Notes: a model not told the origin generated them from the letters alone. A stretch of 32,000 nt of DNA from Wolbachia endosymbiont of Litomosoides sigmodontis (GCF_013365435.1 NZ_CP046577.1:360001-392000); one strand, 5' to 3'. Numbered from the stretch's first letter, positions 5,222 to 14,860 are shown. Numbers and translations: made by a program.

Positions 5222-6475
5222 TTAATCTATCTTAAGCTTAAAGTCTTTCGTTAGCTTTGCAGAATATATTTCCTCATTATTTTGATCATAGAAAGTAAAT
5301 TTATGATCATCTAAGTTTAATATTGAAAAACCGAAGCCAAAAAAGTTTTTAACTTCATGTGCTAAGTAATTTTTGCCATTTGAGCAGCTAAACTCTATGT
5401 TTTGGTAAACAGGATCTTGGTCTTGAGCGTGTAATAATGCACCACCATTTCCAACTATAATCTGGTCTGGTACATTATTCATTAATAAAATTTGAGCTAT
5501 ATGAATATGTCCAGAAACTATAGTAGTAACATTGTTTGGAAATTTATCACTAAAAGCTTCAATTTGTGTAAGGTTGCCATGACTTTTTAATATCAGAAAT
5601 TCCTTTTTTGGAGATCTCCAAAGTGGTCTGTGAGTTAAAAACCACGTGGGCTTGCTAGAACTATCTTGTGTTAATTTATTAAACTGTTCTTTAAAAGAAT
5701 CAATTTTACTTTGAGTTGTAAAAATATCCTCACCATAAGAAGAGTCAAAAACAAAAAATTTCATCGGTCCGATATCTAAAAACCAGCTAGGAACAAAGTT
5801 TTTACATTTTTCAGGCGAAAAAGAGTATGAATCCAGATATCTAAACCATCCTTCATAAGCTCTATCGCAATTTTCATGGTTTCCTCTAATAAAAAGAAAG
5901 GAAGATTGTAATAAAATATCTTTTGCAGGCTCAAACCAATCAGAGTACCAAGCTTCTTTGTTGTACCCATAAATGTTGCCACACTTTTGTGCATTTCTAC
6001 ATTTAGTTTTTCTATAATGGTAATCGCCAACGTGGATAATTAAGTCTGGTTCATGAAGAGCAATAGAATCTAAATTTTTTTTTAAGGGCCAATTATCTAC
6101 TGAATTACATTCTTGTTGAAATAATGTATTTATTCTGCAGCCTGTATCACCAATAAAAGCGATTCTACTAATCTTTTCTGGTAATATAGGAATTTGTATT
6201 CCATCAATGCTAATGTTTTGAGCACCAGTTTCTACTGTTAGTTCACAAATTGTTTCAATGTGATCGTCATTGTTAATTGAGCTGCGGTTTAACATCTCTA
6301 CTTTTTTATTATCAACATGAGCAACAGGACAGGTGTTATTGTCTATAATTGCACGTATGCTTAATTCATTATTTGGAATAACCTGAGACCAGGTGTATAA
6401 TATTTGTGCTTGAATGGAGTGAAAGCTAATTACAAAAGATAAAGCTAAAAAAATAAGGATGTTAGCTATATTCAT
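5222..6475 (-). CDS. calcineurin-like metallophosphoesterase with N-terminal signal peptide
   Basis: 417 aa. Signal-like N-terminus MNIANILIFLALSFVISFHSIQA. Metallophosphoesterase motifs IGDTGC, HVGDYHY, IRGNHE and SGHIH occur in canonical order. Confidence 0.8.
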   Translation of the reverse strand: MNIANILIFLALSFVISFHSIQAQILYTWSQVIPNNELSIRAIIDNNTCPVAHVDNKKVEMLNRSSINNDDHIETICELTVETGAQNISIDGIQIPILPEKISRIAFIGDTGCRINTLFQQECNSVDNWPLKKNLDSIALHEPDLIIHVGDYHYRKTKCRNAQKCGNIYGYNKEAWYSDWFEPAKDILLQSSFLFIRGNHENCDRAYEGWFRYLDSYSFSPEKCKNFVPSWFLDIGPMKFFVFDSSYGEDIFTTQSKIDSFKEQFNKLTQDSSSKPTWFLTHRPLWRSPKKEFLILKSHGNLTQIEAFSDKFPNNVTTIVSGHIHIAQILLMNNVPDQIIVGNGGALLHAQDQDPVYQNIEFSCSNGKNYLAHEVKNFFGFGFSILNLDDHKFTFYDQNNEEIYSAKLTKDFKLKID

Positions 6476-11953: not shown

Positions 11954-14200
11954 ATGAGTCATAGTGGTAACCATCTACGTAATATTTTGATAGGTGGTGT
12001 TGTGGCTTTTAGTATACTAGAGTTTTGTTTCTATTTGTCTGGTATACTATTTTATCTATTTGTTGATGGTCCAGATGGTGTGAACTTTAAGGCAATCAAC
12101 CCTAGCTTGACGCCTTTCCCTCAAGCTCTTTGGCCAACAATTTTTGATCATATACAAAATTGTTGGCATCATCCATGGTTATATAATTTAGAGCTTAAGA
12201 TAAAATTAATTATATCTTTTGCATTACCTGTTGTTGTTTTAATGATTATTTTATGGAATTTAAGAGAAAGAATAATTGAGTGGCGGCCATTTAGAAAAAA
12301 AGAATCGCTCCACGGAGATTCGAAATGGGCATCAGAGAAAGAGATACGAAAGGCAGGCTTAAGAAGCAAAAAGGGACTATTGCTTGGTAAGGATAAAAGA
12401 GGTTACTTCATTGCTGATGGATATCAACATGCATTGCTATTTGCACCTACAGGTTCTGGTAAAGGTGTTGGTTTTGTGATTCCCAATTTGTTATTTTGGA
12501 CTGACTCAGTAATTGTACACGATATAAAATTGGAAAATTATGAAATAACAAGTGGCTGGCGGGAGCGACAAGGGCAAAAAGTGTATGTATGGAATCCAGC
12601 ACAGCCAGATGGAATAAGCCACTGCTATAATCCATTAGAATGGATTAGTGAAAAACCTGGTCAAATGGTTGACGATGTGCAAAAAATAGCTAACTTAATT
12701 ATGCCTGAACAAGACTTTTGGCAGAACGAAGCAAGAAGCTTGTTTGTTGGAGTAGTATTATATCTACTTGCTGCGTCAGAAAAAGTTAAATCTTTTGGTG
12801 AAGTTGTGCGTACGATGCGTAGTGATGATGTAGTTTACAATCTTGCTGTTGTTTTGGACACAATGGGCAAAATAATACATCCTGTAGCATATATGAACAT
12901 CGCTGCTTTTTTGCAAAAGGCTGACAAAGAAAGGTCGGGCGTTGTTTCAACCATGAACTCATCTCTTGAGTTGTGGGCAAATCCATTAATTGATACTGCA
13001 ACTGCATCAAGTGACTTTAATATTCTAGATTTTAAGAGGAAAAAAGTTACAGTTTATGTTGGTTTAACTCCAGATAACTTAAACAGGTTAAGGCCTTTAA
13101 TGCAAGTTTTTTACCAGCAAGCAACTGAATTTTTATGTAGAAAATTGCCGTCGGATGATGAGCCTTATGGTGTGTTGTTTTTGATGGATGAATTTCCAAC
13201 ACTTGGAAAAATGGAACAATTTCAAACTGGTATTGCATATTTTCGTGGCTATAGAGTTAGATTATTCCTAATTGTTCAAGATACTGAGCAACTGAAAGGA
13301 ATATACGAAGAAGCGGGAATGAACTCCTTTTTGTCAAACTCAACTTATAGAATAACTTTTGCAGCTAATAACATTGAGACAGCTAACTTGATATCGCAAC
13401 TTATAGGGAACAAAACTGTACAACAAGAATCGTTGAACAGACCTAAATTTTTAGACTTAAATCCTGCATCAAGATCGTTGCATATCTCTGAAACGCAGAG
13501 AGCATTGCTGTTACCTCAAGAAATTATTATGTTACCACGTGATGAACAGATAATTTTGATAGAGTCGACTTATCCAATTAAATCAAAGAAAATCTTATAT
13601 TATAGTGATAGCGCCTTCATAAAAAAGCTACTTAAGAAGACTCATGTGCCTACACAGGAGCCATATGATCCAAACAAAGTTTTTTCTGATATTAGTAAAG
13701 GTAAGATCAATAACGAAGAAAACAACCCTATTGAAGGGCCTAATACTGCTAATTATCCTATTGAGGCTCAAACTAAAAATGCGGTATACGATGAATCAGA
13801 GCTCGATAATGAGCTTAAAGAGGAAGAGATCGATGATGAAGATGTTGACGATAAATTTAATAAAGGAGGTGATAACAGATTTGATGATGAAGATGATGTC
13901 AAATTTAAAGACGATGATGAATATAAAGAGGAAAAATATGATGATGTATTCGATGATGAAGATGACAAATTTGAAGAAGATGATGGGCTTAAAGAAGAAA
14001 AATATGATGATGTATTCGATGATGAAGATGACAAATTTGAAGAAGATGATGGGCTTAAAGAAGAAAAATATGATGATGTATTCGATGATGAAGATGACAA
14101 ATTTGAAGAAGATGATGGGCTTAAAGAAGAAAAATATGATGATGTATTCGATGATGAATTTGAAGATGATAACGATAAGCCAAAAAGTAATGGGAAGTAA
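11954..14200 (+). CDS. virD4: type IV secretion coupling protein VirD4 (rvhD4) with an unusually long acidic, repeat-containing C-terminal tail
   Basis: 748 aa. Two N-terminal TM helices, Walker A APTGSGKGVGFVIPN, Walker B-like LFLMDEFPTLG. The TraG/VirD4 core ends near aa ~555. The remaining ~190 aa are D/E/K-rich with tandem repeats. Confidence 0.93.
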   Translation: MSHSGNHLRNILIGGVVAFSILEFCFYLSGILFYLFVDGPDGVNFKAINPSLTPFPQALWPTIFDHIQNCWHHPWLYNLELKIKLIISFALPVVVLMIILWNLRERIIEWRPFRKKESLHGDSKWASEKEIRKAGLRSKKGLLLGKDKRGYFIADGYQHALLFAPTGSGKGVGFVIPNLLFWTDSVIVHDIKLENYEITSGWRERQGQKVYVWNPAQPDGISHCYNPLEWISEKPGQMVDDVQKIANLIMPEQDFWQNEARSLFVGVVLYLLAASEKVKSFGEVVRTMRSDDVVYNLAVVLDTMGKIIHPVAYMNIAAFLQKADKERSGVVSTMNSSLELWANPLIDTATASSDFNILDFKRKKVTVYVGLTPDNLNRLRPLMQVFYQQATEFLCRKLPSDDEPYGVLFLMDEFPTLGKMEQFQTGIAYFRGYRVRLFLIVQDTEQLKGIYEEAGMNSFLSNSTYRITFAANNIETANLISQLIGNKTVQQESLNRPKFLDLNPASRSLHISETQRALLLPQEIIMLPRDEQIILIESTYPIKSKKILYYSDSAFIKKLLKKTHVPTQEPYDPNKVFSDISKGKINNEENNPIEGPNTANYPIEAQTKNAVYDESELDNELKEEEIDDEDVDDKFNKGGDNRFDDEDDVKFKDDDEYKEEKYDDVFDDEDDKFEEDDGLKEEKYDDVFDDEDDKFEEDDGLKEEKYDDVFDDEDDKFEEDDGLKEEKYDDVFDDEFEDDNDKPKSNGK
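13931..14173 (+). repeat. 66-bp tandem repeat: three perfect units plus a truncated fourth, encoding EKYDDVFDDEDDKFEEDDGLKE inside the virD4 3' end
   Basis: Units 13931-13996, 13997-14062 and 14063-14128 are identical base for base. 14129-14173 is a partial unit with a 9-nt deletion. 13865-13930 is a diverged older unit. Confidence 0.95.
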
Positions 14201-14230
14201 AGTCAACTTTGTCTGCTTTTTTAGCTCATG

Positions 14231-14760
14231 CCAATTTCTACTGTAAAAAAACTAAATGTTGTAATGGGTGGCAAAAGGGCATAGTATAACAGCCGTAGCA
14301 CAAAAATATGTTGTATTTAAAGAGTTATACACTAGCTGTATGGATAAAGCATCTAAAATTTGGAAGGGAAGAGAATTTGTTTATCTACATTCGCAATGTT
14401 ATTGAAAATTAGATTGAATCTAGATCGATTTGCAATATGAATGCAAGAAAATCATAATATTACCATTAAAGAAATGAGAATAGAATCTAGGAGAAACTGA
14501 GCTTAAATGTCAACAAGTCTAAGGAACTACCTTATTTTTATCTCTACAGTGCAGTTAATTTTAGAAATGAAGAGAATTCTAGCTTATTGAGCGACTTTGA
14601 TTCTATATAAAATAGAACATTTTACATAATAAAGTCTATAATACAATTGTTTTGCTTGAGATTGCTTTGTGCAAATTTATTATCTTTCTTTTTCACTCCG
14701 TAATTAAGCATCTCTACAATGTTATTTGTTTGACTATTAATAATGAGAATTGGTGCAACC
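14231..14760 (+). mobile_element. Decayed IS630/Tc1-like insertion sequence, copy R2, internally deleted (boundaries approximate)
   Basis: Starts with the family terminus ccaatttctactgta. The rest aligns with R3 and R4, for example gtataacagccgtagcacaaaaatat and cataataaagtctataatacaattg...cttgag. No intact ORF. Confidence 0.7.
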
Positions 14761-14860
14761 TTGATTTGACACTAAGATTTAATACAGTTACTCTAATCTT
14801 AAATTTTATACTTCCCATAGGGTGTCATCCTATGATTAGAAAGGTCAAATTTTGAGAAAA

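Follow-up and report, generated by a model that had tools for sequence, protein, structure and literature searches.

The chromosomal virD4 of a filarial Wolbachia from supergroup D, very probably the wLsig strain found in Litomosoides sigmodontis, raises the question of how the coupling protein of a type IV secretion system came to carry exact tandem repeats near its C terminus and what an extension of this kind might do. We addressed it in a 32,000-nt stretch of the genome (positions 360001–392000 of NZ_CP046577.1, here called the window; G+C ~32%), in which virD4 occupies positions 11954–14200 on the plus strand. The explanation that we favor, with moderate confidence, is that this supergroup-D VirD4 has a disordered polyanionic tail, that a module of this tail was recently amplified by slippage, and that the tail acts as a docking arm, the expansion itself being a nearly neutral length variant.

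Tandem Repeats Finder (TRF) reported an array at 13879–14158 with a period of 66 bp, 4.2 copies, and 94% matches. When the array was tested base by base, each position i from 13931 to 14092 was found to be identical to position i + 66, which gives perfect periodicity over 13931–14158 (228 bp). The period of 66 bp corresponds to 22 codons, and the units lie head-to-tail and in frame, the three perfect ones at 13931–13996, 13997–14062, and 14063–14128; in an alternative register the 22-aa module reads FDDEDDKFEEDDGLKEEKYDDV. The parts of the array are as follows.

13865–13930, plus strand: older diverged unit, GGDNRFDDEDDVKFKDDDEYKE, with 41 of 66 nt identical to the perfect unit (base-by-base test).

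13931–14128, plus strand: three base-perfect 66-bp units, identical at 66/66 nt, each EKYDDVFDDEDDKFEEDDGLKE with a net charge of -10 per unit (TRF and base-by-base test).

14129–14197, plus strand: ancestral partial unit at the C-terminal end, which agrees with the perfect unit for 30 bp (14129–14158) before it passes into FEDDNDKPKSNGK, with the stop codon directly after (base-by-base test).

With the highest tandem-repeat score of the whole 1,045,802-bp genome (a single contig), in which only two arrays score above 150, the 66-bp array is beyond chance. The initial annotation of this locus had described three perfect units flanked by one truncated and one older, diverged unit, and this observation is confirmed; its interpretation is partly supported. 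Open reading frames (ORFs) that overlap the repeat in other frames or on the minus strand (13644–14246, 13768–14100, and 13796–14206) were rejected as stop-free by-products of GAT/GAA-rich DNA. An Rfam search of the repeat region gave no match, and promoter-like and terminator-like sites there were found at background level only.

The copy number of the unit was then compared, along the lines already proposed for the 3' ends of virD4 in related strains, between the window's own genome (G000), its sister genome (G054), and a wBm-like genome (G045). A tree built on the last 400 core residues of VirD4 pairs G000 with G054 as its sister (support 99/91), and the core DNA of the two is 93.9% identical. 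The number of unit copies is ~3.5 in G000, 1 in G054, and 0 in G045. The G054 tail (131 aa, net charge -40) contains the old unit, one new unit, and a terminal partial unit; in the G045 tail (109 aa, net charge -28) the new unit is missing, and only the old one precedes the terminal part. The C-terminal ends orthologous to FEDDNDKPKSNGK read EKYDDEYDDEFEDEGDNDKPKSNGK in G054 and EKYDDEFDNEFEDEDDGDKPKSNGK in G045, and VirD4 of wBm (676 aa) has the orthologous end ...EEKYDDEFDNEFEDEDDGDKPKSNGK. Aromatic-acidic motifs of the FDDE type number 6 in the tail from the window, 4 in that of G054, and 3 in that of G045; relative to G054, the added units bring 44 residues and two further motifs of this type, and they shift the net charge by about -17 to -20.

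These comparisons suggest that two full units were gained in the window's lineage relative to its sister, or else lost in the sister. Because the copies are perfectly identical, the expansion appears to be young, and the claim of a recent expansion, first made from the window alone, is supported. The G054 unit matches that of the window across 64 nt, the longest identical run in the gene. We rejected this identity as a sign of special constraint or of transfer, since the core contains runs of 62 and 56 nt.

As to how the array expanded, the G054 tail already contains two EKY(D/N)D..(F/Y)DDE segments 66 bp apart, a pair that would provide a substrate for slipped-strand mispairing. In the window's genome, recA is a decayed pseudogene in which at least 12 stops break up the PF00154 matches (G000:59402–60161) and these fall into different frames, and 5–9 homologous-recombination genes have been lost from wLsig and wLbra (PMC8116671). 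Given the decay of recA, RecA-independent replication slippage most likely drove the expansion of the unit, and RecA-mediated unequal crossing-over was set aside; of the earlier proposal of slippage or recombination, the first part is thus the likelier. Homogenization of the units by gene conversion is unlikely, and we therefore read their perfect identity as youth. In the events that we envisage, imperfect direct repeats that were already present at a spacing of 66 bp gave rise to slippage, and the outcome was an in-frame amplification of the 22-aa module from one to ~3.5 copies in the window's lineage. The decayed recA locus as a whole lies at G000:C1:59153–60199 on the minus strand, and it nowhere stays open for more than 167 aa.

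Second in size among the tandem arrays of the genome is one of 132 bp × 1.9 copies (96% matches, G000:C1:102217–102466), which lies inside a plus-strand ORF and there duplicates a WH2 actin-binding motif (AILEQIRQGTKLL). This ORF encodes the orthologue of Wbm0076, which belongs to the WAS family and is a candidate type IV effector. One of the two largest tandem repeats of the genome is found in the coupling protein and the other in a candidate substrate. The Wbm0076 orthologue of G054 has the same length (408 aa, 88% identity), and for this reason G054 probably shares the WH2 duplication.

The protein that carries the array is a VirD4/TraG type IV coupling protein, and both its family matches and its place in a gene cluster bear out the identification in the initial annotation. 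The gene and its core are delimited as follows.

11954–14200, plus strand: virD4 (type IV coupling protein), 748 aa and a stop codon (ORF and Pfam).

11954–13654, plus strand: conserved core, aa 1–567, with N-terminal hydrophobic helices followed by the nucleotide-binding and all-alpha domains (Pfam span).

PF02534 (T4SS-DNA_transf) matches aa 124–567 with an E value of 1.9e-156, and PF12696 (TraG-D_C, E 1.5e-25) and PF10412 (TrwB_AAD_bind, E 2.6e-24) match as well. The gene is the last of a virB8-virB9-virB10-virB11-virD4 cluster on the plus strand, with VirB10 (TrbI) and VirB11 (T2SSE) recognized by Pfam directly upstream on the same strand and prmC downstream. Wolbachia VirD4 proteins, at 87–92% identity, are the closest homologues among the matches listed. 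An exact look-up of the protein, aimed at further assemblies of this strain, gave no entry, in a collection from which close records may be absent. The only solved relative turned up by sequence search was Helicobacter Cag5 (structure 8dol, E 8e-29), and this match stops at residue 563 of the query. The Walker A (APTGSGKG, aa 164–171) and Walker B (LFLMDEF, aa 408–414) motifs are both intact, and residues Gly-167, Ser-168, Gly-169, Lys-170, Gly-171, Asp-412, and Glu-413 are unchanged across a 28-sequence VirD4 alignment. A possible N-terminal membrane anchor is suggested by hydrophobic stretches at about aa 11–37 and 85–101; a structural model shows helices at 5–38 and 79–108 (predicted local distance difference test, pLDDT, ~70–80). 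As the last invariant columns of the alignment reach Pro-573, the core ends at about aa 567–573 and leaves a tail of 181 aa. The first reading had put the end of the core near aa 555 and the length of the tail at ~190 aa; the acidic tail stands, and its limits are revised.

This 181-aa tail has 81 Asp/Glu residues and a net charge of -57. Its charged residues make up 58% of the total, its net charge per residue is -0.31, its hydropathy is low, and its isoelectric point (pI) is 4.05 versus 8.7 for the core. By the charge-hydropathy criterion the tail is predicted to be disordered, in answer to the disorder prediction that had been called for. Two regions can be distinguished in it.

13655–13798, plus strand: proximal tail or linker, aa 568–615 (QEPYDPNKVFS...YPIEAQTKNAVYDES), net charge -5 (tail alignments and charge-hydropathy).

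13799–14197, plus strand: polyanionic region, aa 616–748, with 72 Asp/Glu and 20 Lys/Arg per 133 residues (composition).

The proximal region is moderately conserved across Wolbachia and is itself predicted to be disordered by charge-hydropathy. The polyanionic region has a charged fraction of 0.69 and a net charge per residue of -0.39, and it ends in a short basic patch, DKPKSNGK.

To place the tail among its relatives, we cut VirD4 tails from the conserved QEPYDP motif onward in 57 Wolbachia genomes, which gave 42 distinct tails. They range from 84 to 181 aa and from -27 to -86 in net charge, that of the window being the longest. The acidic frame is kept in 41 of the 42 distinct tails, and the +1 frame of the tail DNA is stop-free as well. 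The lone exception among the 57 genomes is a frameshifted copy in a 67%-complete draft (G013, contig C73), in which the tail runs on in a Met/Lys-rich +1 frame with a net charge of +12; the frameshift is either a sequencing error or a true loss of the acidic tail. Long acidic VirD4 tails that are unrelated in sequence were also found in Ehrlichia, Anaplasma, Neorickettsia, and Mesenet, whereas, among the 119 nearest cluster representatives, distant VirD4 proteins of Rickettsiales and other alphaproteobacteria with 590–600 aa have short neutral tails. The long polyanionic tail thus appears to be a trait conserved in Anaplasmataceae and a few neighboring lineages by composition and not by sequence. 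The notion that an acidic tail is special to this gene has to be given up, with such tails in 56 of 57 Wolbachia genomes and in Ehrlichia, Anaplasma, and Neorickettsia, and with precedent in the literature (PMC7434980).

Length varies within Wolbachia even at short distances. One well supported clade has tails of 146 aa and of 92 aa at core branch lengths of ≤0.03; a homologous 22-aa unit, FDDEEDEFESGDEFKEERDDDG, occurs three times in imperfect form in the 146-aa tail, and its number in this clade ranges from about one to three. Among other Wolbachia relatives, two copies of the homologous unit occur in the 124-aa tail of G064 and one in the 102-aa tail of G019, the placement of both in the tree being unresolved. 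Beyond Wolbachia, exact tandem repeats were found in 3 of the 119 representatives, P0044, P0061, and P0045, the last with a 13-aa unit × 4.4. The other two, both from unannotated metagenome-assembled Rickettsiales, hold base-perfect in-frame arrays at the DNA level.

L061:4897–5595: VirD4 P0044 (908 aa), 138 bp × 5.1 copies, 100% matches, tail net charge -145.

L062:4981–5940 and 5937–6380: VirD4 P0061 (1147 aa), 87 bp × 11 copies (100%) and 99 bp × 4.5 copies (99%), tail net charge -295.

All three resemble the VirD4 of the window in protein family, position in the tail, and acidic composition; the units of P0044 and P0061 (138, 87, and 99 bp) are unrelated to that of the window, and their arrays are much larger. 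Exact arrays in VirD4 tails are rare but recurrent. The comparison fits a selection that keeps the acidic composition, with length, at 84 to 181 aa on a highly conserved core, loosely constrained, and the wide variation among relatives argues against a fine tuning of unit number.

We propose that selection for negative charge maintains the tail as a whole and that the tail would serve as a flexible arm on which secretion signals or adaptors of positive charge dock electrostatically. We infer the docking arm because C-terminal domains of coupling proteins in other systems bind partners, and by this analogy a role of the tail in effector recruitment is plausible. In Rickettsia, effectors bind to the coupling protein RvhD4 through C-terminal sequences of positive charge (PMC4546372). 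With the number of modules loosely constrained, the expansion itself would most likely be a nearly neutral length variant.

Several points weigh against this reading. In Xanthomonas and pKM101 it is the all-alpha domain, and not the C-terminal tail, that binds substrates (cited in PMC13463995). An AlphaFold2 model of VirD4 from the 28-sequence alignment had a mean pLDDT of 38 with a core that was poor too, and so lends no independent support to the disorder of the tail. Zero differences among the copies, together with ~3% divergence per lineage, date the gain only roughly to the later half of the period that followed the separation from G054, a weak bound that constraint on the unit would loosen further. 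The unit count, finally, is that of the assembled sequence.

An adaptive account, in which module number sets the valency or reach of the tail and so alters the effectors recruited, the expansion having been selected in the host lineage, we consider unlikely. It can draw on the C-terminal domains that set substrate specificity in F-like TraD (PMC13463995), on the part that the DotL C-terminal domain takes in adaptor and effector reception (PMC7434980), on the independent recurrent expansions in several Rickettsiales VirD4 tails, and on the coincidence of the genome's two largest arrays in VirD4 and a Wbm0076-like candidate effector. However, close relatives with near-identical cores differ widely in tail length and charge, as relaxed constraint predicts, and the perfect copies hold no selection signal.

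Just as unlikely, in our estimate, is a regulatory or autoinhibitory role, by which the polyanionic tail would fold onto the basic core or mimic DNA and gate the ATPase or channel instead of serving as a substrate receptor, extra modules merely strengthening the intramolecular contact. The difference in pI between core and tail would suit such a contact, there are other proteins whose binding to DNA is modulated by an acidic tail (cited in PMC7434980), and the C-terminal domain of TraD in the F system is required for the regulation of pilus production (PMC13463995). Yet the functions so far known for coupling-protein tails are those of partner binding, to TraM and IcmSW.

A wider version of the adaptive account would make the tail of Anaplasmataceae and related Rickettsiales a modular, fast-evolving substrate-capture device in which gains and losses by slippage alter effector valency or selectivity in a host-adaptive manner. 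We regard it as unlikely too; if true, the expansion would be a recent adaptive change in the feeding of effectors to the secretion channel.

Functionless drift, with the tail as tolerated low-complexity junk in an AT-rich, repair-poor genome and both its composition and its length irrelevant, strikes us as distinctly improbable. Recombination and repair genes have indeed been lost from this genome, and the tail is poorly conserved apart from its composition. Against this, a strong negative charge has been retained in Wolbachia, Ehrlichia, Anaplasma, and Neorickettsia despite the turnover of sequence, and all but one of the distinct Wolbachia tails keep the acidic frame, though a frameshift would create no stop. 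Very improbable is an artefact of assembly or library, with a true unit number lower or higher through slippage during the polymerase chain reaction or consensus error: the wLsig assembly was indeed made with Canu from capture-enriched, PCR-amplified PacBio libraries, but the 228-bp array is far shorter than the multi-kb circular consensus reads, of which 180,870 were used (PMC8116671), the independently assembled sister G054 has the unit in the identical position, and arrays of homologous 66-bp units are present in other Wolbachia assemblies.

On the reading that we prefer, a slippage-amplified module in a charge-maintained docking arm, the locus would exemplify a wider pattern, that of a highly conserved motor with a tail constrained in composition and free in length, in which perfect tandem arrays arise time and again. 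The Wolbachia of filariae are targets for drugs; the effectors on which the symbiosis depends are probably delivered by their type IV secretion system, of which VirD4 is the component that selects effectors. If the acidic tail aids recognition, the natural variants with one, two, and three modules would be reagents at hand to map the interaction in an established E. coli chimera assay. Since L. sigmodontis serves as a laboratory model, the value of the array as a typing marker, a use first suggested for it, is small.

Downstream of virD4, positions 14198–14851 contain no outer-membrane protein gene (wspB), and the first gene that is intact after virD4 is prmC, which starts at 14852. A sequence of ~58 bp just 3' of virD4 (window 14242–14300) is a dispersed repeat that recurs several times elsewhere in the same genome and many times across other Wolbachia genomes (77–86% identity), and is probably the terminus of a decayed insertion sequence or palindromic element.

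Among known systems, a close parallel is offered by the C-terminal domains of VirD4-type coupling proteins, which are rich in Asp/Glu and have been implicated in substrate handling (PMC7434980); according to one proposal, such acidic domains broaden the range of effectors and control when these are presented (Alvarez-Martinez & Christie 2009 and Whitaker et al. 2016, via PMC7434980). The acidic domain of the VirD4-type protein of Agrobacterium tumefaciens is likewise an Asp/Glu-rich extension past the nucleotide-binding domain in an effector-translocating VirB/VirD4 system. Unlike the known acidic domains of VirD4, the wLsig tail is in part a base-perfect tandem array, with a copy number that differs between sister genomes. 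In a literature search on VirD4 with acidic tails or tandem repeats and on Wolbachia and Ehrlichia, which left the primary paper on the Wolbachia/Anaplasma VirD4 chimera outside its reach, repeats in the tail were undescribed.

In TraD of the F plasmid, the C-terminal domain comprises 148 residues, of which the last 8 bind TraM; specificity for the plasmid is determined by the domain as a whole (PMC13463995). The likeness to the wLsig tail lies in a C-terminal extension that acts as a specificity determinant, in TraD through an acidic, Phe-containing terminal motif. TraD differs in that it recruits the relaxosome for DNA transfer, whereas the Wolbachia protein works in a system for effectors, and in that the acidic-Phe terminus of TraD has as its counterpart the basic patch DKPKSNGK. 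We know of no TraM partner for Wolbachia VirD4. The tail of Legionella DotL receives IcmSW-bound effectors (PMC7434980). Here the likeness is that of a coupling-protein tail for the reception of adaptors and effectors, the C-terminal extension of DotL binding DotN, IcmS, IcmW, and LvgA; the difference is that DotL belongs to a type IVB system and that its tail is structured once the adaptors are bound. For Wolbachia VirD4 no IcmS/IcmW-like adaptors are known to us, and none were searched for.

Coding and typing repeats that vary between strains are familiar in Anaplasmataceae, among them those of the Ehrlichia TRP proteins and of Anaplasma marginale Msp1a, the variable tandem repeats of Ehrlichia ruminantium, and, in Wolbachia, VNTR-141, VNTR-105, and the ank genes. 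Like the wLsig array, they consist of in-frame and often acidic units whose number depends on the strain, in obligate intracellular alphaproteobacteria. They differ in their location, which is either intergenic DNA or a protein that is secreted or exposed at the surface, whereas the wLsig array, compared here between genomes only, resides in the cytoplasmic tail of the secretion machinery itself. Set beside these systems, the locus in the window is best described, as far as its sequence and those of its relatives allow, as a length variant, specific to one lineage, of a domain whose type is already known, in which the acidic tail is familiar and the copy number is the distinctive part.

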